A stretch of DNA of 64,000 bases from positions 32,001 through 96,000 of IMG/VR virus record IMGVR_UViG_3300033146_002242, one strand, 5' to 3'. A program made the translations under genes and the position numbers. This document shows, piece after piece, positions 19,468 to 62,549 of the stretch; position 1 is the stretch's first letter; each line of letters starts with the position of its first letter. The DNA is from a virus. The notes beneath the pieces are model-generated. The model searched no databases. It had not been told where the DNA came from and saw only the letters and a program-made list of their open reading frames with translations.

Positions 19468-19503
19468 CATTCATATATTATATTGCAAGGAGGTTTAAAC
19501 GAT

Positions 19504-20094
19504 ATGAATTCTATAGAGAAACCATCATATAATTATGATTTGATTATTTTATTTTCGGGTGGTGCTGATAGTGCCATGTTACATGATTTAGCAATATCAT
19601 CAAAAAGACATCCAATTTATTTAATGATTGATTATGAACAATTGCATAAAGAAGAATTACAATATGCTAAAAGATTGTTAGAATATTGTAAATCTATTCA
19701 ACATTCACAAACTGTAAAAATTCAGAATTTAAAAATAAATTCTGGTTTGACAGGTGATGGTGAAGTAAATCAATATAATAATGTTCATCCTTTTCATGTA
19801 CCATCTAGAAATCTTATGTTTATCTCGATTGCAGCTTCTATTGCAGAAGCTAATAATATTGATACTATTTGGTATGGCGCTGATTTATCAGATAGGGAAA
19901 ATTTATTTCCTGATTGTTATCAGGAATGGATTATAAAAGTTAATGAACTTTTGAAAATAAATGGAAGTAAACCAATAAAATTGGAAGCTCCATTAATAGG
20001 AATGACAAAAGATTCTATTTTACAATATTTGAAATCTAGAGGTTATAGAGAAGAAATTATTTTTTCTGGATATGGTAATTTAGATAAAAATTAA
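19504..20094 (+). CDS. queC: 7-cyano-7-deazaguanine synthase QueC-like
   Basis: ILFSGGADS (PP-loop), YEQLHKEE, VPSRNLMFISIAA, FPDC, LEAPL; C-terminal Zn cysteines absent. Confidence 0.82.
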   Translation: MNSIEKPSYNYDLIILFSGGADSAMLHDLAISSKRHPIYLMIDYEQLHKEELQYAKRLLEYCKSIQHSQTVKIQNLKINSGLTGDGEVNQYNNVHPFHVPSRNLMFISIAASIAEANNIDTIWYGADLSDRENLFPDCYQEWIIKVNELLKINGSKPIKLEAPLIGMTKDSILQYLKSRGYREEIIFSGYGNLDKN

Positions 20095-20139: not shown

Positions 20140-20820
20140 ATGGACGATACAAGAATTTTAATTACAAATGAATATTATCCAAAAGGATTAAATGATGTGC
20201 AAGTGCAAAAACATTATAAGAAATATCAAAAAGAAATTTTATTAGAAGTACAACGAAGAAAAGTTGCTCTTGTAATCTGTCCAGATACAAATAATTTAGT
20301 TTGGTTAAGGAATATTAAAAATAAACCTATTTATTTAAAGAATAGGAGAGATTTTCAAAATATAATTCATGAAAGAGTTTTATCAATTTTTCCTGAAATT
20401 CAACAGTATGAAAAGAAATTAGTTGTTGATATTGATTGTACTAATATTAATAATGCAAAAAAAGTAGCAAAATTATTATATAATATATTTACAAAGTCTG
20501 GATATATTACTGATGTAAAAATATTTTTTACTGGACAAACATCTTTTCATTTACATTTATTTTTACCTAATAAAACAAATATTGAGAGAGGTAAAGAATT
20601 AGTTGATGGGTTAATTAGGAGAGATGCATTTGCTCCAAAATTAATGACAATCAATCAAAGAAGGCCCAAAGATGAATTCCCAAATATAGATTTTTCAACT
20701 TTTAAAGAAAGATCAATTTATATTTGTCCATATTCATTATCAAAATTTGGGTTAATTGCGGGAGAAGTAAAAATAAATGAAATAGATTCATTTAATATAC
20801 AACATTATAAAGTTAAATAG
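20140..20820 (+). CDS. Archaeo-eukaryotic primase-polymerase (LigD PolDom-like AEP)
   Basis: LVVDID (motif I), FTGQTSFHLH (motif II), IDF...CPYSL. Confidence 0.75.
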   Translation: MDDTRILITNEYYPKGLNDVQVQKHYKKYQKEILLEVQRRKVALVICPDTNNLVWLRNIKNKPIYLKNRRDFQNIIHERVLSIFPEIQQYEKKLVVDIDCTNINNAKKVAKLLYNIFTKSGYITDVKIFFTGQTSFHLHLFLPNKTNIERGKELVDGLIRRDAFAPKLMTINQRRPKDEFPNIDFSTFKERSIYICPYSLSKFGLIAGEVKINEIDSFNIQHYKVK

Positions 20821-21391
20821 TTTATTCACTAAATAAGAGTGAGGCGGGCCTCGGCTAAGCAGAATAAATATTATATATATTTGCTCACTAAATAAGTGAG
20901 ATATTGTTGTGTTGTTTGGATAAATATTATATATGTTTGCTCACTTATTTAGTGAGACTGGATTTTTCCCTATCATCAGAATATTAATTAGATAAAAACA
21001 TATTTGCTCATTAAATAAATGAGATATAACCTGGCCGTTATTTTAATTAAATATTATGTATTTGCTCACTAAATAAGTGAGAGATTATGTTCTTTTGATT
21101 TAGGTATTAAAGTATTTTGAATAATATATGTTTGCTCATTAAATAAATGAGACAGGGCGTAAGAAGGTAAAAATAAATGAAATAGATTCATTTATAATAT
21201 ACAACATTATAAAGTTAAATAGTTTGTTCACTAAATAAGTGAAATGAGATTATTTTGTTTTTTATTAGATTATTAATCAAATAAAAACATGTTTGCTTAC
21301 TAAACAAGTGAGATGGGGATAGAGAGTTTGGACGTAAATCAGGTTTTTAAAATAAAATATATGTTTGCTCATTAAATACAATAAAAATGAG
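20811..21391 (+). CRISPR. Degenerate CRISPR-like array, 9 hairpin repeats, type V (Cas12m/Cas12j-like) architecture
   Basis: Cores at 20821, 20880, 20936, 21003, 21061, 21131, 21223, 21292, 21364; consensus (TAAATATTATATATG)TTTGCTCACT-AAATA-AGTGAGA; period 56-92 nt; mostly unique spacers. Confidence 0.72.
21162..21239 (+). repeat. Direct duplication of the primase-polymerase 3' end plus first repeat (20763-20838)
   Basis: AAAAATAAATGAAATAGATTCATTT..AATATACAACATTATAAAGTTAAATAGTTT.TTCACTAAATAAG present twice with few indels. Confidence 0.9.
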
Positions 21392-21412
21392 AAAAGTAGC
21401 TAATGTAATTTG

Positions 21413-21444
21413 TTTTAAAAAATAAAAAGAGTTATATATATTTA
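21413..21444 (+). promoter_or_regulatory. Candidate early promoter (31/32 identical to 49440-49471)
   Basis: TTTTAAAAAATAAAA(A/C)GAGTTATATATATTTA. Confidence 0.5.
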
Positions 21445-21484: not shown

Positions 21485-22015
21485 ATGAAAGCTAATATTG
21501 AAAAAGAAAAACTTTTTAAAAAGTTTATAGATAATGGAGAAATTTGGGCTGATAAATATGGTAATATTTATAAGAAAAATGGAACTTGTAAATATCATTT
21601 AAATAATACTGGTTATTATAGATTATCATATAAATCAATAACTATTTTTGTGCATAGGTTGGTTTGGATTTATTTCAAAGGATTGATATATGATGATAAG
21701 CTACAAATTAATCATATTGATGGGGATAAATTAAATAATACTTTGGAAAATTTAGAAATTGTTGATAATAAAACTAATACAAAACATGCTATACTAATGG
21801 GTTTACGAACACCCATATCAGAAAAAACAAAACAATATTTTTCTGAAAAGATAAGGGGGTGCAAAAATATAAATGCAAAATTTACACAATCCGATGTTAT
21901 TTTATATAGGTATTTATATAAAATGGGCAAAATAAATATAAAAACAATTTCTGAAAAATACGATATAACACAACGAAGTGTAAAAAATATGTTGAGTGGA
22001 AAAACATATAATTAA
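21485..22015 (+). CDS. Free-standing HNH homing endonuclease
   Basis: [37 protein letters not shown]; C-terminal NAKFT..V helical DNA-binding region. Confidence 0.9.
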
Positions 22016-24312: not shown

Positions 24313-26355
24313 ATGGAGTTTATTGATTTTGTCGGGAAAATAAAAAAGAATTTTGAATATATGAAATCAAAATCTGATATTTTATTTTATACTACAAGAG
24401 ATAGAAATAAAATATGGGAAACATATTTACAATCATTTCCAGAAGGATCAAATCCAATATATAAAGAAAGAACTGAACATGATTGTAATGCATGTAAATC
24501 ATTTATAAGACAATTTGGATCCATTGTTGTCATAGATCCATCTGATTTAAAGATGTTATCTATATGGGATATGGAAATAGGTGGTTCATATCAAGATGTT
24601 GCTGATGCAATGTCACGATATGTTAAATCACATCCTATTGAAAATATTTTTATGCATAATGAAAAAAATATGGGAATTGAATGTAATAGACAAGAAGTAG
24701 GTGGTAAAATTCTGAAATGGCATCATTTTCATTTAAAAACACCATCTAATATATTAGTCAATAAAGATGTAATAAATGAAATCAAATCAGAATCAAGAGC
24801 CAACAAAGAAGTATTATATAGAAGTTTAACTGAATTAACAATTGAATCTGCTGAAATTGTATTAGATTTAATTGAACAAAATACATTGTATCGTGGCCGT
24901 GAGCATAAAAAAGTTGTGGAACTATTTATTGAATTAAAGAAACAGTTTAATAAAGTACCAGATAATTTAAAAGATCATTGTTGTTGGCTAACATCAGTTT
25001 CATTTAAATCATTATCAAAAATTAGAAATACTGTTATAGGTACATTATTATCTGATTTATCAGAAGGAAAAGATATTGAAGATGCTGTAAAAGCATATGA
25101 ATTTAAAGTAGCTCCTTCGAATTATAAAAGACCGAAAGCTATTGTAACTAAATCAATGATTTTACAAGCTCAAAATACTCTTAAAGATTTGGGTTTATTA
25201 GAATCATTGGAAAGAAGATATGCAACAATATCAGATATATCTGTTAATAATGTATTGTTTGCAGATAGATCTGTTAAACCAGCAATGAAAGATGTGTTTG
25301 ATGAATTATTAGAACAAACACCTGAAAAAATAAAAAAATATGATAATGTTGAAAAAATTCATATTGAAAAATTTATATCTGATGTATTACCAAAAATTAA
25401 TACACTTGAATTATTTATTGATAATAAACATTTAAATAATTTAGTAAGCTTAACAACAGCTGTTAATCAGGATGCACCTTTTTTATTTAAATGGCCGAAT
25501 CATTGCGCATGGTCATATACAGGTGACGTGGCAGATTCGATCAAAGAAAAAGTAAAGCAAGCTGGTGGAAAAGTTGATGGTGTTATACGGTGTTCTTTAT
25601 CATGGTATAATACAGATGATTTAGATATACATGTAATTGAACCCAATCAAAATGAGATTTATTATTTAAATAATACTTCATTCACATCTGGAAAATTAGA
25701 TGTTGATATGAATGCCTCTGCACGAAAAGCTGTGAGAGGTGCTGTTGAAAATATTACATGGAACAACAGAAATAGAATGTTGGAAGGTAATTATGATTTG
25801 ATTATTCATAATTATAAAGTTCGTGAACGTAATATTGATGTTGGGTTTGAAGTTGAAATTGAACATAATGGACATGTATATAGTTTTAATTATCCAAAAC
25901 ATGTTAGCCATTCAAAGCCAATTAAAGTTGCAACATTTTATTATAATCCAAGAACAGATGAATTCAAATTAATATCATCCATACAATCAACTGAAAATAT
26001 AAAAGTTATAGATGAATGGAATATAAAAACAAATCATTTTCATAAAGTCCAATTATTATTGATGTCTCCCAATTTCTGGGATAATGGTAATGGATTTGGT
26101 ATTGGTAATAAACATTATTTCTTTATGTTAGAAAATTGTAAAAACCCAGATAATTGTCGGGGTTTTTATAATGAATATTTAAAAGCTGATTTAACTAAGC
26201 ATAGAAAAGTATTTGAGATTTTAGGGTCTAAAATGAAAGCTCCATATACTGACAATCAATTAAGTGGTATTGGATTTTCAGAGACACAAAAAAATAGAGT
26301 TATTGTTAAAGCGAGTGGGTCTTTCAATAGGCCATTAGAATTAATTTTCCAGTAA
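24313..26355 (+). CDS. Large hypothetical protein
   Basis: 680 aa, GAGGAG RBS; HDCNACKSF; C-terminal DLDIHVIEP..LDVD..VENITW (YfaP/DUF2135-like pattern, uncertain). Confidence 0.8.
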   Translation: MEFIDFVGKIKKNFEYMKSKSDILFYTTRDRNKIWETYLQSFPEGSNPIYKERTEHDCNACKSFIRQFGSIVVIDPSDLKMLSIWDMEIGGSYQDVADAMSRYVKSHPIENIFMHNEKNMGIECNRQEVGGKILKWHHFHLKTPSNILVNKDVINEIKSESRANKEVLYRSLTELTIESAEIVLDLIEQNTLYRGREHKKVVELFIELKKQFNKVPDNLKDHCCWLTSVSFKSLSKIRNTVIGTLLSDLSEGKDIEDAVKAYEFKVAPSNYKRPKAIVTKSMILQAQNTLKDLGLLESLERRYATISDISVNNVLFADRSVKPAMKDVFDELLEQTPEKIKKYDNVEKIHIEKFISDVLPKINTLELFIDNKHLNNLVSLTTAVNQDAPFLFKWPNHCAWSYTGDVADSIKEKVKQAGGKVDGVIRCSLSWYNTDDLDIHVIEPNQNEIYYLNNTSFTSGKLDVDMNASARKAVRGAVENITWNNRNRMLEGNYDLIIHNYKVRERNIDVGFEVEIEHNGHVYSFNYPKHVSHSKPIKVATFYYNPRTDEFKLISSIQSTENIKVIDEWNIKTNHFHKVQLLLMSPNFWDNGNGFGIGNKHYFFMLENCKNPDNCRGFYNEYLKADLTKHRKVFEILGSKMKAPYTDNQLSGIGFSETQKNRVIVKASGSFNRPLELIFQ

Positions 26356-30030: not shown

Positions 30031-30094
30031 AAAATTTACATTTGCATATTAAGTAAATATGACGATTTATACTTTTTATTTATAAATTTAATGT

Positions 30095-30168
30095 GTGGGT
30101 GTGGCCTAGTCTGGTAAGGCACCTGATTTGGGATCAGGAAATCGGAGGTTCAAATCCTCTCACCCGCA
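30095..30168 (+). tRNA. trnP: tRNA-Pro(UGG)
   Basis: Complete cloverleaf CCTGA-TT TGG GA-TCAGG; acceptor GTGGGTG/CACCCGC. Confidence 0.9.
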
Positions 30169-30333
30169 TCAATTTTGTAATTTTTAAATTTGCACTATGA
30201 ACAATAGTGACAAATAGCAGAGGATTGTAAATGAGGAGATACAGATTGATATATATTATCATTAGTATATATTCCATAATAATTTATAAATATTACACAT
30301 TATACTAATGTGGCGGCTGGCGTTGGATTTAAT

Positions 30334-30570
30334 ATGATTATATATCGATGTGATAGATGTAATAAAAAAATGGATGAAGATGAGAATCGTAGAATTGAAG
30401 GATTTAATAAATTTTCATCTAATGATATTATGCATTTTACAATTTCAATAAAGCCAGATAATAAACATTTTTGTCATGATTGTATCAGGCTTATGGTAAT
30501 CAATGCATTAGAAGATCCCAACAATAATATATTATATGGGTGTAATACAAAATATATTAGTAATAAATAA
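30334..30570 (+). CDS. Small zinc-ribbon protein
   Basis: YRCDRC ... HFCHDC. Confidence 0.6.
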   Translation: MIIYRCDRCNKKMDEDENRRIEGFNKFSSNDIMHFTISIKPDNKHFCHDCIRLMVINALEDPNNNILYGCNTKYISNK

Positions 30571-30649
30571 ATTTATTTATGCATTACACATTTTAAATGT
30601 GACAATATAATATTGTATTATTTTTTAAAAAAAGTGAAAGGAGCTTTGT

Positions 30650-32404
30650 ATGAAGAAAGTTGTTGTGAGAAAATATAGATGTTGGGAGCCTTTGAATATG
30701 GGGCAGGATGTAATTACCCAGTTGTGGTTGCAAAATCAAATGTGGAATAAATTAGTAGAGATGGAACAAAATTTATATAAGAAGTATAGAGAAGTTATGT
30801 CTACTGATACAGCAGTAGCTGAAATTGAAGAAAAATTAACTCAAAATGATACTGCTATTAAAGCATATATGGAAGAAAGAAATGAAATAAGGAAAAAACT
30901 TAAAAAGAAGAAATGTGCTGAAACAGCATATTTTGATGAACAAATTAAAGAATTATCAGCAGAATCAAAAGAGCTTCGTAAGATAGCTCGGGAAAAAAGA
31001 AAAGAAGCAAAAGAAAAAGTTAAACCTTTACTTGATGAAATCAATCAAGAAAGAAAGGAAAGAAGAAAAAAAATATATCAAAATTCGGGGTTGTTTTGGG
31101 GTAATTATAACAGAGTCATGGCATCATTTGATATCGCTGTATCAAAATCGATGAAAACTGGCAGCACTTTACGTTTTCATCGATTTGATGGAACTGGAAT
31201 TTTTAAAAATTTCTTGTCCCCCGGCCGAACAAATGATGACATGTTAAATGGAAAGTTAAGTTACTTACATTTACAGGACATTCCTGCTGAGTCATTTAAT
31301 GATTATATCGGTAGAAATAATCCATGTAAAATGGTTCTCGGTAGTCGTAGAGAAAGATCACGAAAATATGGGCTTCTCAAATTCACGATTTATCGAGGAA
31401 AAGATGAAGAAGGAAATAGAATAAATAGAATGTTAGAAATGCCAGTGCTGCTTCACCGTCCATTGCCAGATGATGAAGATTTATTAATTAAAGAAGCCGT
31501 TGTACGGCGGGAGTGTGTATCACCCGGTGAATATAGATGGTTTTTTATATTAACATATGTTGGTGGTGAATTTCAGCCAGTTCAACATGTTAATACTGGT
31601 AGTGTTGCTGGTATTAACATGGGTTGGAAAACTGTCAATAATAATACATTGCGAATTGCTACTTTGGTGTCGGATAAAGAAACAGTACATTTCATTCTAC
31701 CAGAAAAAATTATGAAAACATATGATTATTTAAATCAATTAAAATCGGAAGTCGATAGCATGATTAACCATGCTATTGCTAGAATAAAAGAGATTATGAA
31801 AGATGATGATGAACTTCCTGAATCAATGGGAGTTTATTTAACCAGAATAACAAAGGCCAAACGGCCGCGATATGATTTATTAGAGAAAATGATGTGGGTA
31901 TGGGATAAAGAATTGTCATATAAACCAGAAGAATTTTCTGAGGCAAAGGCTCATTTTGATTATCTTAATCGTGTTTTATCTGAGATGAATAATTTGAGAG
32001 ATAAAGTCCGTGGACACCGGTTAGATTTATATCGGTGTTGGACAAAAATGATTACTCAAAAATATGAAACAATTATTGTTGATAAATTAAATTTGGCGCA
32101 ACTAAGTAAATTGGAGGCCGATGATGGCACTCCCACCAATAACTTACCAGAAGCAGCTCGTAAAAATCGAGTCATTGCATCGGTAGGTATTTTTAAAGAA
32201 TGGCTTGATAAACAGGCTTTGAAAGTGGGGTCTGTAATTATTAAGAAATCAATTAAATCATCCACAATCTGCTCAGATTGTGGCGGTAAATTGATTAGAA
32301 AAGACAGTATCATATGGGCGTGCGAAAATTGTGGTAGCGTGTTTGACCAAGATGTTAACGCGGCTACTAACTTGATACGGTCGTATCAAGAAGAAGCAGC
32401 GTGA
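30650..32404 (+). CDS. cas12m: Cas12m-like (type V-M / V-U1) effector with predicted inactive RuvC
   Basis: AAGGAG RBS; QLWLQNQMWNKLVE, long coiled coil, GLFWGNYN, LRFHRFDGTG, PVLLHRPLP, RuvC-I AGINMGW (D to N), GHRLDLYR, RuvC-II IIVD (E to D), C-terminal CSDCG..CENCGSVFDQDVNAATNL. Confidence 0.8.
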   Translation: MKKVVVRKYRCWEPLNMGQDVITQLWLQNQMWNKLVEMEQNLYKKYREVMSTDTAVAEIEEKLTQNDTAIKAYMEERNEIRKKLKKKKCAETAYFDEQIKELSAESKELRKIAREKRKEAKEKVKPLLDEINQERKERRKKIYQNSGLFWGNYNRVMASFDIAVSKSMKTGSTLRFHRFDGTGIFKNFLSPGRTNDDMLNGKLSYLHLQDIPAESFNDYIGRNNPCKMVLGSRRERSRKYGLLKFTIYRGKDEEGNRINRMLEMPVLLHRPLPDDEDLLIKEAVVRRECVSPGEYRWFFILTYVGGEFQPVQHVNTGSVAGINMGWKTVNNNTLRIATLVSDKETVHFILPEKIMKTYDYLNQLKSEVDSMINHAIARIKEIMKDDDELPESMGVYLTRITKAKRPRYDLLEKMMWVWDKELSYKPEEFSEAKAHFDYLNRVLSEMNNLRDKVRGHRLDLYRCWTKMITQKYETIIVDKLNLAQLSKLEADDGTPTNNLPEAARKNRVIASVGIFKEWLDKQALKVGSVIIKKSIKSSTICSDCGGKLIRKDSIIWACENCGSVFDQDVNAATNLIRSYQEEAA

Positions 32405-32408
32405 ATAT

Positions 32409-32453
32409 ATTCCCTGACATGAGAATATTTCAAAAATTCTCATGTCAGGGAAT
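32409..32453. terminator. Perfect 18 bp hairpin after cas12m-like gene
   Basis: attccctgacatgagaat/attctcatgtcagggaat followed by T-rich tract. Confidence 0.65.
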
Positions 32454-32554
32454 CATTTTTACACGGTAAATACATACAAATCGTGGCAACTTATCAGGTC
32501 AAATATTATTATAATATTTGAATTTTTGAATTTACACATTTAATTAAATGTGAT

Positions 32555-32890: not shown

Positions 32891-33170
32891 ATCTAAAAAA
32901 TCCTATATCAGAAAAAACATTTTTAATAGGTAAAATATGTGGAATTAAAAAACCTGTTATAACAGGTGAATCATTTATTTTAATGATTGAACATAAATCA
33001 CATAAATCAGTTGTGTGGAATATTCCAGCAACTGATGTTGAATTAATATAATTATTGTCCAATATAAAATTGGGACCATACATACAGCAGCTATTATAAC
33101 AATATAATCATTTTATTATAAATTATCCAATATTATAATTGGGTCAACGATACAAATAACATTTATTAAA

Positions 33171-33244
33171 TGGGGTGTCGTTCAATGGTAGGACAACAGC
33201 CTTTGGAGCTGTTTATTGGGGTTCGAATCCCTACACCCCAGCCA
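33171..33244 (+). tRNA. trnQ: tRNA-Gln(UUG)
   Basis: U1:A72, G73, CCA encoded; ACAGC-CT TTG GA-GCTGT. Confidence 0.93.
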
Positions 33245-56391: not shown

Positions 56392-56526
56392 ATGAATAAA
56401 AATATTGAATTGATTCCAGTATCAGAAATAAAAATAGAATATGACCCATCTATGACAACTGCATATGATTTTACTGTAGAAGATTATTTTACTTTTTGTA
56501 CAGATGATGGTATTTTTGTACAGGAT
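56392..56526 (+). mobile_element. Putative split-intein C-terminal half (45 aa) fused to beta' fragment
   Basis: Blocks F/G: AYDFTVEDYFTFCTDDGIFVQD followed by Ser+1. Confidence 0.7.
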
Positions 56527-58425
56527 TCAATGTCAATTATACATCCTCTTTCTGATGAATCACAAGAAGAAATCAGAGAGAAAATGAACTCTCCAAAATC
56601 TTTAAAATCATTAGATGGTTCAACTACATCATTATCAAAGGATATGTATGTTGGATTATATATTTTAACAAAACCAAAAAAGAAAAAATCATCTCCAATT
56701 ATTATCACAAGTCCAGAGCAATTAAATGATATAACAGACCCATATATTTTAGTTAAATTTAGAGGGCATGTTTGTACCGCAGGATTTGCAATATATAATT
56801 CATGTTTTCCAAGAGATTTTGAATTTCAAACAAAACAAGCAACAAAATCAGAATTAAATCGAGTCACAACAATTTGTTTAGAAAAATATGATAAAAATAT
56901 TTTTAATGAAATTTTAGATAGATTATGTAAAATAGGATTTAAATGGGCTACAATAGCTGGATCCAGTTTTACTTTAAAAAATTTAGATGTTCCACCAGAA
57001 ATTGAAAAACTAAAAAAAGAAATGGTTGGGAAGGATCCTGAAACTGTATCAGCTTTATTAAATAAAGCTCAAAAAATAATTGAAAAATATTTACACGATA
57101 CTGGGTTAGGTGATATTATTGAAAGTGGATGTGCAAAAGGATATGGGCAATCCATGCAAATTTTGGTGGCAAAGGGATTGATTTCATCTATGGAAGGTGG
57201 AATTTTACCCGGTATAGGTACATCATTTATCGATGGATTGCCTCCAGATATATTTTTTACAGCCGGTAGTGGTGCTAGACATGGAATGGTTGGTAGAGCA
57301 ATTAATACTGCTGACACAGGTTATTTGGCGAGAAAATTAGTTTATTTTTTAAACAGTGTGGAACTTCATCCTTCATTAGCTGATTGTAAAACAAATCGTA
57401 CTTTAAAATTATCTATTATAGATAATAAACAAATCCAAAAATTAAAATTTAGATTTATTGAAAAAAACGGTAAAATAATTCCAATTGAACAAGCGGGTGT
57501 TAAAATTGGGGATGTTATTAATTTGAGATCACCAATTTTTTGTAAATCGCAAAAAATTTGTCATACTTGTCATGGAAAATCTTTTTTACGTAAAGCTACA
57601 CCATATATAGGTGTGACATATGGGCTGATATTAGGTGAGTCAGCAACACAAGCATCAATGGAAAAATTTCATACTGGCGGTGCTATTAAAATTAAAAAGA
57701 AAAACTTGGTTAATGATTTAATATCAAATGTACCTGTTTTGAATAAATCTATAATAAATCAATTTTTTACAACATCAGAAAATTCATTAATTACCAAACA
57801 AGATTGTAAATTAGAAATTGATGTTGTTGATCTAAAAATGTCTGATGATGGTGATTATTATTATAATGAAGATAGTAAAAAATTGGTATTTAAAAATTTA
57901 ATTTCTACATATACATCTGGAACAACAACATTTCCTGTATTATTTGATTATGTTACTGAATTTGATATTGTTCATGTTATAAATCAAAATAAAGAAAAAA
58001 TTGTATTAGAATTTATTAAAGGTGATGTTTTATTAATATCCCCATTAGAAGATACTGAGATGACAGAACTATCACGTTATTTAGATAGACTGATTGGTGG
58101 TAGAATTAAATTTTTTGATGTAGAACATTTGTTTTCAAAAATATATCAACAATATAAAGATTTATCACCTTTACCAATGGTATCGTATGAAGTATTATTA
58201 TCGCAAATTTTAAGATATAAAAAGGATCCTCAATATCCAGCTAGATTAGCTAAAGAATGGGATCCTATTTTATTAAATATGCGTAAAACTATTTTTAATG
58301 AAGGTTTTATTCAGGGACTTGCTTTTGAAAATATAAATGAAGCAATTAGATCTGGATTAACTAAGAATACAGATGATAATTTGAATATTCTGGAAAAAGT
58401 ATTTACCGGAGAACAATTAAAATGA
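56392..58425 (+). CDS. rpoC: RNA polymerase beta' subunit, C-terminal fragment (starts just after the DFDGD motif)
   Basis: SMSIIHPLSDESQEE, bridge helix GARHGMV..INTADTGYLARKL, Zn SPIFC..CHTCHG, trigger loop GESATQASMEKFHTGG. Confidence 0.92.
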   Translation: MNKNIELIPVSEIKIEYDPSMTTAYDFTVEDYFTFCTDDGIFVQDSMSIIHPLSDESQEEIREKMNSPKSLKSLDGSTTSLSKDMYVGLYILTKPKKKKSSPIIITSPEQLNDITDPYILVKFRGHVCTAGFAIYNSCFPRDFEFQTKQATKSELNRVTTICLEKYDKNIFNEILDRLCKIGFKWATIAGSSFTLKNLDVPPEIEKLKKEMVGKDPETVSALLNKAQKIIEKYLHDTGLGDIIESGCAKGYGQSMQILVAKGLISSMEGGILPGIGTSFIDGLPPDIFFTAGSGARHGMVGRAINTADTGYLARKLVYFLNSVELHPSLADCKTNRTLKLSIIDNKQIQKLKFRFIEKNGKIIPIEQAGVKIGDVINLRSPIFCKSQKICHTCHGKSFLRKATPYIGVTYGLILGESATQASMEKFHTGGAIKIKKKNLVNDLISNVPVLNKSIINQFFTTSENSLITKQDCKLEIDVVDLKMSDDGDYYYNEDSKKLVFKNLISTYTSGTTTFPVLFDYVTEFDIVHVINQNKEKIVLEFIKGDVLLISPLEDTEMTELSRYLDRLIGGRIKFFDVEHLFSKIYQQYKDLSPLPMVSYEVLLSQILRYKKDPQYPARLAKEWDPILLNMRKTIFNEGFIQGLAFENINEAIRSGLTKNTDDNLNILEKVFTGEQLK

Positions 58426-61400
58426 TATCTTTTGATAACGCAAAAATATATAAAATATATAATGGGTTTAGATTTTATCAGCATCCTAAAAATCCATATT
58501 TTATTACATATTTATCTGAAAATTCATCTTTTTTAAAAGATTATCATAATTTAAATATTTCCAGAATTGATGTAAAAAATATAGTCATGCCTATAACAAA
58601 AATACCAAGATCATATCCTTCTTCACAAGATAGGCAATTATATAAAAAATATAAATTATATTTATCATCCCCTAGAAAATTACCAACTGGAAAAAATGTT
58701 ATTTTTGATATATCTAAATATTTGTATTTGATTGATAGTACATATAAACCAATGACATATCGGCAAAAAGCTGGTAAAATGATTCAAAATATTGTTAGAG
58801 ATGCATTTTATCAAGTACCTTCTAATTATGAAAAAATTCTGATGTATTCAGTTAGAGTTGATAAAGATTTTAATCCTAGTTATATTAATAGAAAGATTTT
58901 TTTATTTTTAGAAGAAATACATGATAATAATTTTCCATATGATCATTTTATTTTATGTTTAATTTCTGAAAACAATGTATATTATCGTATTCTGATTAAA
59001 AACAGAGAATATTTTTTTAATAGATTGAAACAATATATTAAAAATATTAGAGAAATTGATGTTGAAAAAGAAAGTGAAGAAAATGAAGAACGTGAAAAAT
59101 TATCACAAGATATTATAAAGAAAATTACTAACAATATTGAACCTAAAAATAAAGACGTTATAAAAAATGTATTAGCTGATTTTATTGAACAACATCCAGA
59201 AGAAGTAGAAAAAATTGTTAAAGATGATGTAGAAAATAATAAATCAGTGTCAGCATCAACAGCATATGATTTGGTATCAATAGCCATTTTAGTTCAGAAT
59301 AATAGAAATATAGAGAAATCGAAAAAAATAGTTCAAAACACTAATAAAAATCCTCTTGAAAAATTCAAAAAAATTGAAAAACAATTTGTTGATGAAATAA
59401 TACCTATTCAAAAACCAACTGTTGATAATGATAGTGTTTTATATGAAAAAGTTAAAATAGCTGATTCAGTAGATAATATAGGACCAGATCATATTTTTGA
59501 AAAACGTAAAAAAGATTTTACACAAAATCTTAAAAAAGATATTGCTTTAACTTTTAAAAGTTTAGATAATAGAGATGTGCCATTAAAAATACAATCTGTT
59601 AAATTTGAAAATTCACCTGACCAGTCACATAATTTAAATAAATCAGATATAACTGTAGCAGTAATTACACTTTTTGATAAAAAAGGAAAAAATCATACTG
59701 TTAGAATACAAATACCAAAAATTAATAAAGATGGTACATTTTTTATTAATGGTAAACGGAAGTGTTTAATTAATCAAATTTATCAATTACCTATTCAATT
59801 TCCAAAACCATTTGAAGCTAAATTTGAAAGTTCATATTCAATGTTTTATATTTATAGTAAACATTTGGCAAAGGTAAATTATTTACAAATTTTTATGGGT
59901 ACTTATAAATTACCACTGTCTATTGTTATGTTTTATGGTTTTGGATTTGATATTGTTCTAAAAAAGTTTGATATTAAGTATATGGTACAAGATGAAGCAC
60001 CACCTAAAGATACCAAATATGTTTTAAAAATTGATGGGAAATATTATATTTTTCATAATATTCATAAAGAAGTACAGATTCAATTTATTAATTCATTGTT
60101 ACGTGAAGATTTGAATGGAATAGCGAATGATTCTATTGAATTATTTTCTAAAGCATTTTTTAGTAAATTTATAATTAAAGATACTGGCCGTGTTAATTCA
60201 GTATATTTAATTCAAAATAACTTTGATAATATTGTTGATAATATTTCTAAAAGTATTTTGGCTTCTAAAGGTTATCCAACTAAACTAGCAGATATTATGT
60301 ATTATATGTCTGTTGGGGCGGTAGAAGGATATACTATAAAAAGAAATGATTTAGATAATCAAAGAATTAGAAGTTCTGAAATTATTTCCCATTTATTACA
60401 GAAAGAAGTTTTGACAGCATATACTATTTATAAAGAAAAATATTTAGCAGGAAATGAAGATGCTAAATTTGAAATGGCTGAAACAAAATTGTTATCTGAA
60501 TTTAGTATGGCTGAAATTGTTGCTAATATGGAATATGCTAATCCAATTGAAGAATTATCTGTTATGACAAGGGTCAGCCCAATTGGTAAAAATATTGGTG
60601 GTGTTCCAAATAAAGATACTATTACTTTAGAAGGTAGAAGTTTACATAAAACATATTTTGGTAATATAGATCCTGTTGATACACCAGAAGGGCCAGGTGT
60701 TGGTGTGACACAACATTTAGCTATCGGTGCGGCTATTTCTACTTCTAGAGGATTATTTTCTGAGCAAAAAGATGCTATGAAAAAACCAACTACTACAATT
60801 TCAACAACAACTGCAATGATACCATTTATGCAAAATAATGATGGTAATAGAGTCATGTTTGGTTCTGGTCAAATGAAACAAGCAGTTCCGTTAAAAAATC
60901 CAGAACCACCTATTGTTCAAACTGGTTATGAATCTATTTTAACTCATAATTTATCTGATAATTTTATTAAAAGATCTGAATGTAGTGGAAAAGTTTTAAA
61001 GATAACAGATTCACAAATTTTCATTCAATGTAAAGATAGTAAAAAAATTGAAAAAATTGATTTAACACCTGTTCATTTATCATCTGGTTCTGGTAGAGAT
61101 ACTTTAAGTGAATTTAATGTAGTTGTTAAAGAAGGGCAAACAGTAAAACAAAATCAAAGAATAGCCGAAGGTGCATCTATAAAAGATGGTTTTCTTTCAT
61201 TAGGAAGAAATTTATGTGCAGCTTTTATGTCATGGAAAGGGTATAATTTTGAAGATGGGATTGTTGTAAACGAATCAGTTATTAAAAATGAAAAATTAAA
61301 ATCTTTGCATGGTATGGTGGAAGAAGTTCAATTATCAAAAAAAGATAAAATTTTAGATATAATTAAGATTGGTACACATACTAAGCATGGAGATGTTTTA

Positions 61401-62549
61401 TTAAAAAAATCTATTGGTGATTTAGATGAATTATTGGGAATTGATGATAGTGATGATGAAGATTTATTAACTGATTTTGCTGATGGTAAAATGATAAAAA
61501 AATCACCCGGTGGTGTTATAGCAAATATAGAAATTTTTTCAAATGATAAACCAGATAAATTTCCTGAATATGTACAAGAAATAATTAAAAAAACAAATAA
61601 AAGATATGGTAATCCAAAATTATCATATCGAAATAAAAAAGGACCTATTCAAGGAACTTTGATTAAATTTTATATTAATCAAGAAATGAATCTGATGCAC
61701 GGCGATAAAATGACAAATCGACATGGTGCAAAAGGTGTTATATCATTAATTGAAAAAGAAGAAAATATGCCTTTAACACCGTGGGGCGATAAAGTTGAAA
61801 TTATTCTAAATCCGGTTGGTGTTATCAATAGAATGAATGTTGGTCAATTATTAGAAATGAATATGGGACTTGTTTCTAAAGTTTTAGCTTTACAAATTTT
61901 AAAAAATAAAAACAGTAAATCAACGGTAATTAAAATTATTAAAAATGTATTAAAATTAATTGATAAAACTAATAAACAAGTAATTGTATCATCAATAATA
62001 TCAACCTTAAATGCAATGAGTAGTACTAAATATAAACAATTTATTGAAGAATTAGAATCATATACATTTTTTCCTATTATTATTCCACCTTATAAATCTC
62101 CTAAAATTGAAGATATTTATAAAGTTTATTCATATTTAAAATTACCAAAAACTTATCATTTATATTTACCAGAATATAAATCAAAAACAATTGAGGATGT
62201 TGCAGTTGGTTATATTTATTATGAAAAATTAGAACACATAGGTAATTTAAAATTACATAGTAGAAGTACAGGTCCTGTTATAGCTAAAACAGGTCAACCA
62301 ACAGCTGGGAAAAGGAAAGGTGGCGGTGTACGTGTTGGTGAATCAGATGTTTATGCATTATTAGCCCATAATAGTACAACTGTTGTTAATGAATTGTTTG
62401 GGGCAATGTCTGATGGGGCACAGTCTAAAAACGAAGAAATTTCCAACATATTAATGAATGGGCATACTAAATATGTTCATCAAAAATCATCACCAACTGG
62501 TAATTTATTAAGAGCTTATTTAGTTGCTATGATGATTGAAAAGGGATAA
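58422..62549 (+). CDS. rpoB: RNA polymerase beta subunit with long N-terminal extension
   Basis: DPVDTPEG, GNRVMFGSGQMKQAVPL, GYNFEDGIV, GDKMTNRHGAKGVIS, NPVGVINRMNVGQ, GGVRVGESD. Confidence 0.95.
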   Translation: MISFDNAKIYKIYNGFRFYQHPKNPYFITYLSENSSFLKDYHNLNISRIDVKNIVMPITKIPRSYPSSQDRQLYKKYKLYLSSPRKLPTGKNVIFDISKYLYLIDSTYKPMTYRQKAGKMIQNIVRDAFYQVPSNYEKILMYSVRVDKDFNPSYINRKIFLFLEEIHDNNFPYDHFILCLISENNVYYRILIKNREYFFNRLKQYIKNIREIDVEKESEENEEREKLSQDIIKKITNNIEPKNKDVIKNVLADFIEQHPEEVEKIVKDDVENNKSVSASTAYDLVSIAILVQNNRNIEKSKKIVQNTNKNPLEKFKKIEKQFVDEIIPIQKPTVDNDSVLYEKVKIADSVDNIGPDHIFEKRKKDFTQNLKKDIALTFKSLDNRDVPLKIQSVKFENSPDQSHNLNKSDITVAVITLFDKKGKNHTVRIQIPKINKDGTFFINGKRKCLINQIYQLPIQFPKPFEAKFESSYSMFYIYSKHLAKVNYLQIFMGTYKLPLSIVMFYGFGFDIVLKKFDIKYMVQDEAPPKDTKYVLKIDGKYYIFHNIHKEVQIQFINSLLREDLNGIANDSIELFSKAFFSKFIIKDTGRVNSVYLIQNNFDNIVDNISKSILASKGYPTKLADIMYYMSVGAVEGYTIKRNDLDNQRIRSSEIISHLLQKEVLTAYTIYKEKYLAGNEDAKFEMAETKLLSEFSMAEIVANMEYANPIEELSVMTRVSPIGKNIGGVPNKDTITLEGRSLHKTYFGNIDPVDTPEGPGVGVTQHLAIGAAISTSRGLFSEQKDAMKKPTTTISTTTAMIPFMQNNDGNRVMFGSGQMKQAVPLKNPEPPIVQTGYESILTHNLSDNFIKRSECSGKVLKITDSQIFIQCKDSKKIEKIDLTPVHLSSGSGRDTLSEFNVVVKEGQTVKQNQRIAEGASIKDGFLSLGRNLCAAFMSWKGYNFEDGIVVNESVIKNEKLKSLHGMVEEVQLSKKDKILDIIKIGTHTKHGDVLLKKSIGDLDELLGIDDSDDEDLLTDFADGKMIKKSPGGVIANIEIFSNDKPDKFPEYVQEIIKKTNKRYGNPKLSYRNKKGPIQGTLIKFYINQEMNLMHGDKMTNRHGAKGVISLIEKEENMPLTPWGDKVEIILNPVGVINRMNVGQLLEMNMGLVSKVLALQILKNKNSKSTVIKIIKNVLKLIDKTNKQVIVSSIISTLNAMSSTKYKQFIEELESYTFFPIIIPPYKSPKIEDIYKVYSYLKLPKTYHLYLPEYKSKTIEDVAVGYIYYEKLEHIGNLKLHSRSTGPVIAKTGQPTAGKRKGGGVRVGESDVYALLAHNSTTVVNELFGAMSDGAQSKNEEISNILMNGHTKYVHQKSSPTGNLLRAYLVAMMIEKG

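Follow-up and report, generated by a model that had tools for sequence, protein, structure and literature searches.

A phage-encoded Cas12m predicted to bind DNA without cutting it, and candidate guide units detached from its gene

Cas12m is a natural "CRISPRi" effector (interference based on CRISPR, short palindromic repeats that are clustered and regularly interspaced), and it is under development as a compact base and epigenome editor. To our knowledge, nearly all characterised Cas12m proteins are bacterial and are encoded beside regular arrays. Orthologues carrying D-E-D, H-D-D or N-D-D triads in the RuvC domain (the last of these in two orthologues) bind DNA flanked by a protospacer-adjacent motif (PAM) without cutting it (PMC11013384), and the same is true of PmCas12m, whose active site is N-D-D (bioRxiv 10.64898/2026.03.26.714355). 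In Cas12m2, a missing second metal ion accounts for the absence of cleavage (PMC10442227). A report of September 2026 presented MvCas12m of myxophage MV-1 as the first Cas12m from a phage (bioRxiv 10.64898/2026.09.14.751636), and Cas12m-like sequences are contained in landfill viromes (PMC12607003). Here, we describe a gene of this family located within 64,000 nucleotides of viral DNA (positions 32,001 to 96,000 of IMG/VR record IMGVR_UViG_3300033146_002242); this whole stretch is referred to as the window, and the coordinates of the phage locus are those of the window. The gene (30650..32404, plus strand) encodes a protein of 584 aa which, judged by sequence comparison and structure modelling, is almost certainly a full-length Cas12m (type V-M effector). 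We favour a model in which this N-D-D Cas12m would use hard-wired guides derived from a distal hairpin array (20805..21415, plus strand) and/or from single units flanking the gene.

Compared with the known N-D-D Cas12m proteins (PmCas12m, the two NDD orthologues of Bigelyte et al. 2024, and 23vw, 23vu, 8hhl and 8pm4), the phage system shows the same full-length sequence, fold and triad, the same His-Arg pair, a zinc-ribbon TNB domain, a size of ~580–600 aa, no adaptation genes and, in its candidate scaffold, a core formed by a G.A-closed 6-bp stem. It differs in being phage-encoded in a 26% GC genome, in the lack of an adjacent regular array of 36-nt repeats, in a candidate loop of 5 nt (versus 7–9 nt), in the degenerate 5′ halves of its repeats, and in the dispersal of its units, some at 9 kb from the gene and others within a tRNA cluster. 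MvCas12m is likewise phage-encoded, lacks cas1/cas2/cas4 (Cas4 was not searched for in the record studied here) and has no identified spacer targets. However, its triad is D-E-D and its gene adjoins a regular array with eight spacers and one consensus repeat, whereas the present phage combines an N-D-D triad with a detached, degenerate array.

By analogy, the closest functional counterparts may be the prophage TldR proteins (bioRxiv 10.1101/2023.11.30.569447; PMC13418256), which are also encoded by mobile elements and are nuclease-dead RNA-guided binders with fixed guides and an expected repressor role. TldRs are smaller and TnpB-like, with a long omega-type guide RNA overlapping the 3′ end of the gene, whereas the phage protein has a REC coiled-coil insertion and crRNA (CRISPR RNA)-type candidate scaffolds. 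Membership of the TldR group was rejected on the grounds of size (584 aa, including the Cas12m REC insertion), fold and sequence. The Cas-phi (Cas12j) proteins of huge phages (PMC7162821) are comparable as compact type V effectors of large phages with small arrays and no adaptation module, but they are active nucleases of a different Cas12 lineage (fold TM ~0.3) and their arrays are adjacent. RNA anti-CRISPRs and viral crRNA-like RNAs (PMC10651486; bioRxiv 10.1101/2024.10.29.618823) also take the form of solitary units and mini-arrays with conserved repeat hairpins; these act on host Cas proteins, whereas here the phage encodes a cognate effector. Cas12m and its N-D-D variants being already known, what is new here is how the locus is organised, with an array that is detached, degenerate and built by duplication, single units that may be embedded among tRNA genes, and a scaffold of reduced length, all within a large phage of high AT content.

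The open reading frame (ORF), which starts with ATG, is exactly as it was described in an earlier reading made from the letters alone (hereafter the sequence-only reading), and all of the motifs quoted there are present (QLWL at residue 24, LRFHRFDG at 174, LLHRPLP at 267, AGINMGW at 320, GHRLDLYR at 455, IIVDKLN at 475 and FDQDVNAA at 565) and align with the matching segments of Cas12m2. In a phmmer search of the PDB, the protein matched 23vw across query residues 6–579 (E 2.6e-49), as well as other Cas12m chains (23vu, 1.7e-27; Cas12m2 8hhl/8hio, 4e-19; 8pm4, 6e-17), while TnpB was matched by residues 499–577 only (E 4.5e-5). An AlphaFold2 model based on an 8-sequence alignment (mean predicted local distance difference test score 82) contains long helical hairpins that form the REC coiled coil (residues 18–170). 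Together with the Foldseek and Pfam results, the model revealed the bilobed Cas12m fold, composed of WED, the REC1/REC2 coiled coil and RuvC with an inserted zinc-ribbon TNB domain. The top four Foldseek structures are all Cas12m (TMq 0.66–0.75; GoCas12m 8pm4, 0.75; Cas12m2 8hhl, 0.71), with Cas12f and TnpB at TM ~0.40–0.45 and Cas12j at ~0.3. These sequence and structure comparisons bear out the proposal that the gene encodes Cas12m rather than an IS605 TnpB. The zinc ligands C541/C544/C558/C561 are invariant among the aligned relatives. The family comprises 193 cluster representatives at E ≤ 1e-30, and only one cluster is more than 50% identical to the phage protein.

Alignment to the solved Cas12m chains and 23 relatives placed the RuvC triad at N323/D478/D568. 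The dead-nuclease pattern suggested by the sequence-only reading was thus recovered as N-D-D, the state found in PmCas12m and in two orthologues of PMC11013384. This triad is present in all seven members of the closest clade (45–52% identity) and in most relatives at 31–36% identity, where one protein has K-D-D instead. One relative carries H-D-D, while L012, L020 and a marine clade (24–27% identity) carry D-E-D. From the alignment, and by analogy with the characterised orthologues, the phage Cas12m probably binds DNA but does not cut it. Two features of the crRNA scaffold, C(-1) and the G(-23).A(-2) pair, are read in Cas12m2 by His269 and Arg270 (PMC10442227); H269/R270 of the phage protein align to these two residues, which are invariant in every relative aligned.

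The genomic surroundings of the relatives were compared using four loci encoding close homologues (plus L053, a 1.8-kb duplicate contig of P0004) and 45 metagenome loci. A repeat or an array was found in 23 of the 25 relatives' loci scanned, at ≤ ~300 nt from the gene wherever it could be placed; no repeat was seen in the other two (L012 and L020). The marine clade has regular arrays directly downstream of the gene (36-nt repeats, 66-nt spacing), whose repeats take the form ...CCCTG + 6-bp stem + GGGGTGTA-type loop + 6-bp stem + AC. The clade at 31–36% identity (L006, L008, L010, L011 and L013) has one or two repeats only, located 140–260 nt 3′ of the gene. Those of the closest relatives with enough flanking sequence contain arrays on one or both sides (4 + 3 repeats in L001, three in L002), and for P0002 and P0003, the closest homologues of all (50–52% identity), the contigs break off within a repeat, 90–170 nt past the stop codon. 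The repeats of these two homologues have the stems CGCAAT/ATTGCG and CGCACT/AGTGCG (the latter in P0003). The form common to the relatives' repeats is ...[C/T]G + 6-bp stem + 7–9-nt loop + AC, which shares the architecture of the Cas12m2 scaffold, where a G is non-canonically paired with an A around a 6-bp helix that is followed by C(-1) (PMC10442227).

Three minor observations were made on these loci. In L013, which combines an N-D-D triad with a two-repeat mini-array, the segment following the second repeat (2141–2172) matches 18 nt perfectly at 2693–2710, 550 nt downstream; this could be either a self-target or a local repeat element. The single guides of L006 (7881–7886), L010 and L011 all start with ACCCTG and differ in the remainder, so the repeat may reach beyond its presumed 3′ boundary, or the start may be a conserved seed. 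The Cas12m genes of L003 and L052 (P0002 and P0004) adjoin genes for a TraG/VirD4-type coupling protein and a Sel1-repeat protein, in what looks like a conjugative element; with closest homologues in such a setting, the N-D-D clade appears to move among different kinds of mobile element.

The distal array of the phage comprises nine units spaced by 56–92 nt on the same strand as cas12m, at a distance of 9.3 kb from the gene. Its region occurs once in the parent IMG/VR record (118,287 bp, 38% complete), and it is the only multi-copy element of the record with CRISPR-like spacing. Each unit consists of an AT-rich 5′ part, a TTTG-CTCACT-AAATA-AGTGAG-A core and a variable segment of 18–50 nt, and several of the variable segments are far GC-richer than the genome. 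The stem variants are compensated (CTCATT/AATGAG twice and TTCACT/AGTGAA once, besides one G.U pair). When the two flanking units (see below) are added to those of the array, pairing of the helix is complete (100%), and four of the six pairs have changed on both sides; only the changes within the array count as independent evidence, because the flanking units were selected for pairing. The array stem CTCACT/AGTGAG is one compensated base pair away from the repeat stem of P0003. The genome contains 731 six-bp hairpins; apart from those of the array, just five lie within one mismatch of a near-clade stem, and none of these five has the G...A flanks. On the basis of these sequence features, we lean slightly towards regarding the distal array as a guide source for Cas12m.

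Comparison of segments 20767–20837 and 21167–21239 revealed that the array was partly built by block duplication, and some of its "spacers" are consequently diverged paralogues. Irregular spacing and a duplicated spacer-repeat block are also found in the L001 array, which fits array evolution without an adaptation module. Cas1, Cas2 and Y1-transposase profiles found no match in the record (Cas4 was not searched), and there is no canonical array of ~36-nt repeats in the 9 kb around the gene or elsewhere in the record; since the latter is 38% complete, these absences hold for the sequenced part only. Those of cas1, cas2 and an adjacent canonical array agree with the sequence-only reading. Rfam contains no family for the distal array. 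The idea of one promoter per unit was considered and found unsupported, no k-mer being common to the 5′ parts of the units and the upstream regions of genes.

Two sets of scaffold-like units, overlooked by the sequence-only reading, are located 440 nt upstream and 650 nt downstream of cas12m. The relatives' repeats were used to build two covariance models, R1 (distant marine clade, 13 repeats) and R2 (closest clade, seven repeats, without any window sequence), which were searched over the window with filters off. The best match of R2 in the window (10.2 bits, E 0.61) lies at 30179–30211 on the plus strand, ~9 nt past the gene for tRNA-Pro; a top match would land on the right strand and at ≤ 700 nt from the gene with a chance of ~1%, although the E value is not significant alone. 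This match, a descriptor scan and folding together define a solitary upstream unit (30176..30231, plus strand) that starts 6 nt past tRNA-Pro and reads TTTG-CACTAT-GAACA-ATAGTG-AC, followed by a candidate guide. The downstream mini-array (33041..33170, plus strand) contains two stem copies. Its first unit, at 33057, reads ATTG-TCCAAT-ATAAA-ATTGGG-AC and is followed by a spacer of ~30 nt and a second stem copy 66 nt on (33126–33143), which ends ~27 nt before the gene for tRNA-Gln; the pair resembles the one-spacer mini-arrays of the relatives. The G + 6 bp + A core is shared by seven array units and the two flanking units, with C(-1) in four of the nine. The descriptor G + 6-bp stem + 5-nt loop + AC occurs at only four sites on both strands of the 118 kb (two array units and both flanking sites), a statistic that is suggestive rather than a formal test because the descriptor was shaped after the array had been seen.

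A number of results weigh against the use of these units as guides. The sequence-only reading had proposed that guides come from the distal array; the array does exist, and the idea is strengthened by the G + 6-bp stem + A and the nearly identical stem that it shares with the repeats of the closest homologues, but neither R1 nor R2 detected it at E < 10, so that its role as guide source is something we infer. The R2 match to the upstream unit is by itself weak at the E value given above, and this unit can alternatively fold as a longer, plain stem-loop. The unit loop has 5 nt as opposed to 7–9 nt in the relatives; at this length it seems unable to accommodate the second helix that known scaffolds form between upstream nucleotides and the loop, and this helix may therefore be missing. 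C(-1), one of the features read by H269/R270, is present in only two of the seven intact array units; the loop of array unit 2 is inverted; and the "spacers" of u2 and u6 are diverged paralogues and not independent acquisitions. Thermodynamic folding of single units performed only marginally better than that of shuffled sequences. Searches for targets were negative as well: (i) no convincing match to the guides of the array or the flanking units was found elsewhere in the 118-kb record, (ii) exact searches of IMG/VR with four guides and the repeat core gave no match, (iii) a GTDB-wide scan with one GC-rich guide gave a single 18-mer match, in a Gemmatimonadales metagenome-assembled genome, which is at or below chance expectation, and (iv) known phages and plasmids, compared with the array by blastn, gave AT-rich noise only (E ≥ 0.6). 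Gemmatimonadales are, in addition, implausible as a host for a 26% GC phage.

In an alternative reading, the effector would use only the solitary units beside its gene, and the distal array would be an unrelated structured-RNA or regulatory repeat. The N-D-D relatives at 31–36% identity, with their one or two repeats right after the gene, and the fixed guides of TldR provide parallels for such an arrangement; moreover, the flanking units bear the full G...AC signature, one of them is the top R2 match, and the array lies far from the gene between a primase-polymerase-like ORF and an HNH gene. We nevertheless judge it rather improbable, as it is the array stem that nearly matches the repeat stem of the closest homologues, the array is the only multi-copy element with CRISPR-like spacing and its hairpin has been kept by compensatory changes, while the statistics of the flanking units are weak and an ordinary stem-loop may account for one of them.

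The lack of a canonical array, the negative covariance model searches of the distal array and the absence of targets would also be expected if the gene were a decaying or guide-less remnant, or had been exapted to a non-guided role, and the hairpins did not serve Cas12m. This is unlikely in view of the intact frame, the strong ribosome-binding site, the gene's own terminator and its genome-like codon composition, and because all family-invariant residues have been kept, including H269/R270, the zinc ligands and D478/D568. Somewhat less likely still is a role of the hairpin units as RNA anti-CRISPRs or as decoys resembling crRNAs (Racr, viral crlRNA), which would imitate the repeats of a type V system of the host and sequester or redirect its Cas12, independently of the phage Cas12m. 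Host repeats are indeed mimicked by solitary units and mini-arrays encoded in phages (PMC10651486; bioRxiv 10.1101/2024.10.29.618823), and the degenerate 5′ halves, conserved hairpins and lack of a detected target are in keeping with decoys; however, this phage has its own matching effector with intact scaffold-reading residues, and the stem of the units is similar to the repeats found in the closest relatives of this effector. An IS200/IS605-type TnpB with an omega-RNA, carried as a transposon passenger, is extremely improbable: Pfam detects only a Cas12f1-like TNB zinc ribbon (PF07282, residues 515–575), NCBIfam TnpB models score under their cut-offs and the PHROGs label is "transposase", but TnpB structures match only the C-terminal 80–120 residues (E 1e-5 to 1e-4) as opposed to the full length for Cas12m, the fold scores TM 0.4 versus 0.7 for Cas12m, the record lacks a Y1 transposase, the stop codon is followed by a terminator and not by an omega-RNA scaffold, and the homologues adjoin CRISPR arrays.

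According to the favoured model, the phage would produce a binding-only Cas12m of the N-D-D clade, which would load short crRNA-like transcripts composed of a 5′ scaffold (a G.A-closed 6-bp stem with a 5-nt loop) and a 3′ guide of ~17–20 nt. After recognising a short PAM rich in T/C, the complex would form an R-loop with complementary double-stranded DNA and remain bound without cutting, thereby blocking transcription or replication of the target. The guides would originate from the nine-unit distal array and/or the single flanking units in the tRNA cluster and, since no adaptation genes are present, would be hard-wired, that is, inherited and changed by duplication and mutation. Their targets would lie beyond the sequenced 118 kb, presumably in conserved host genes or competing mobile elements. 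It is a matter of speculation that tRNA processing trims the flanking units. A fuller version of this scheme, which is possible but doubtful, envisages a jumbo-type phage with hard-wired CRISPR interference, in which the dead Cas12m is served by the duplication-evolved array and by tRNA-operon crRNA units whose ends are defined by RNase Z (after tRNA-Pro) and RNase P (before tRNA-Gln), the 5-nt-loop scaffold replaces the canonical pseudoknot, and conserved genes of the host or of rival phages are silenced during infection.

If the model is true, viruses may deploy binding-only CRISPR effectors offensively, and arrays can persist and evolve without adaptation genes. The scaffold may then also be reducible to a shorter form, which would be useful for engineering, and the tRNA-adjacent units, if real, would be a natural counterpart of engineered tRNA-gRNA (guide RNA) arrays.

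The sequence-only reading placed the gene among phage tRNA genes. ARAGORN identified eight of these in the record, and cas12m lies inside the cluster, bracketed by tRNA-Pro(tgg) (30094..30170, plus strand), which abuts the upstream hairpin unit, and tRNA-Gln(ttg) (33171..33244, plus strand), which abuts the downstream mini-array. An AAAGGAG ribosome-binding site is located 8 nt 5′ of the cas12m ATG; this is the heptamer with the strongest enrichment upstream of genes in this genome. Directly 3′ of the stop codon there is an intrinsic terminator (32409..32460, plus strand) consisting of a 22-bp perfect hairpin and a T-run. The GC content at third codon positions of cas12m (26%) equals the genome average, which points to a long-resident gene and not to a recent import. 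The gene, with its CxxC...CxxC zinc ribbon, is the only TNB-domain gene in the record.

A palindrome of the form (T)TA-CACATT..AATGTG occurs three times in the window (0.07 expected) and, in that form, nowhere else in the record. Its copies are located just 5′ of an 86-aa zinc-ribbon ORF (30296..30312), 49 nt before the cas12m start (30587..30601) and just 5′ of a 111-aa ORF downstream of cas12m (32535..32552), and they may represent a shared operator or promoter element of a module formed by these three genes. The 86-aa ORF (30310–30570), situated between the upstream hairpin unit and cas12m, contains two CxxC pairs in a zinc-ribbon-like arrangement. The small ORFs beside cas12m belong to no Pfam or PHROG family and do not resemble the ORF adjacent to the L001 homologue. 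Scans for sigma-70 promoters gave nothing above the shuffled expectation.

The record is a linear viral contig without terminal overlap, and no close relative of the phage or of the neighbouring genes was found in IMG/VR. It encodes a portal, a major head protein, a DNA polymerase, a DnaB-type helicase and pieces of a multisubunit RNA polymerase; the nearest named relative of the major head protein is that of jumbo phage phiR1-37 (27% identity). The designation "jumbo" in the sequence-only reading goes beyond the 118 kb available, but it is plausible, as the CheckV completeness value extrapolates to a genome of ~310 kb. Regions 56392–62549 and 24313–26355 contain the RNA polymerase pieces, with PHROG matches to the beta subunit, and, in addition, a 680-aa protein of phrog_1735, annotated in some phage records as DNA-directed RNA polymerase.

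Next to the distal array, the preceding ORF (20140–20820) has a weak, sub-threshold match to LigD primase-polymerase, and a duplicate of its final 54 nt lies within the array; the array is directly followed by an HNH_3 homing-endonuclease gene (21485–22015). A QueC homologue is encoded at 19483–20094 (PF06508, E 2.4e-30), and from this similarity 7-deazaguanine modification of DNA by the phage is probable, which could have a bearing on self/non-self discrimination by DNA-binding effectors.

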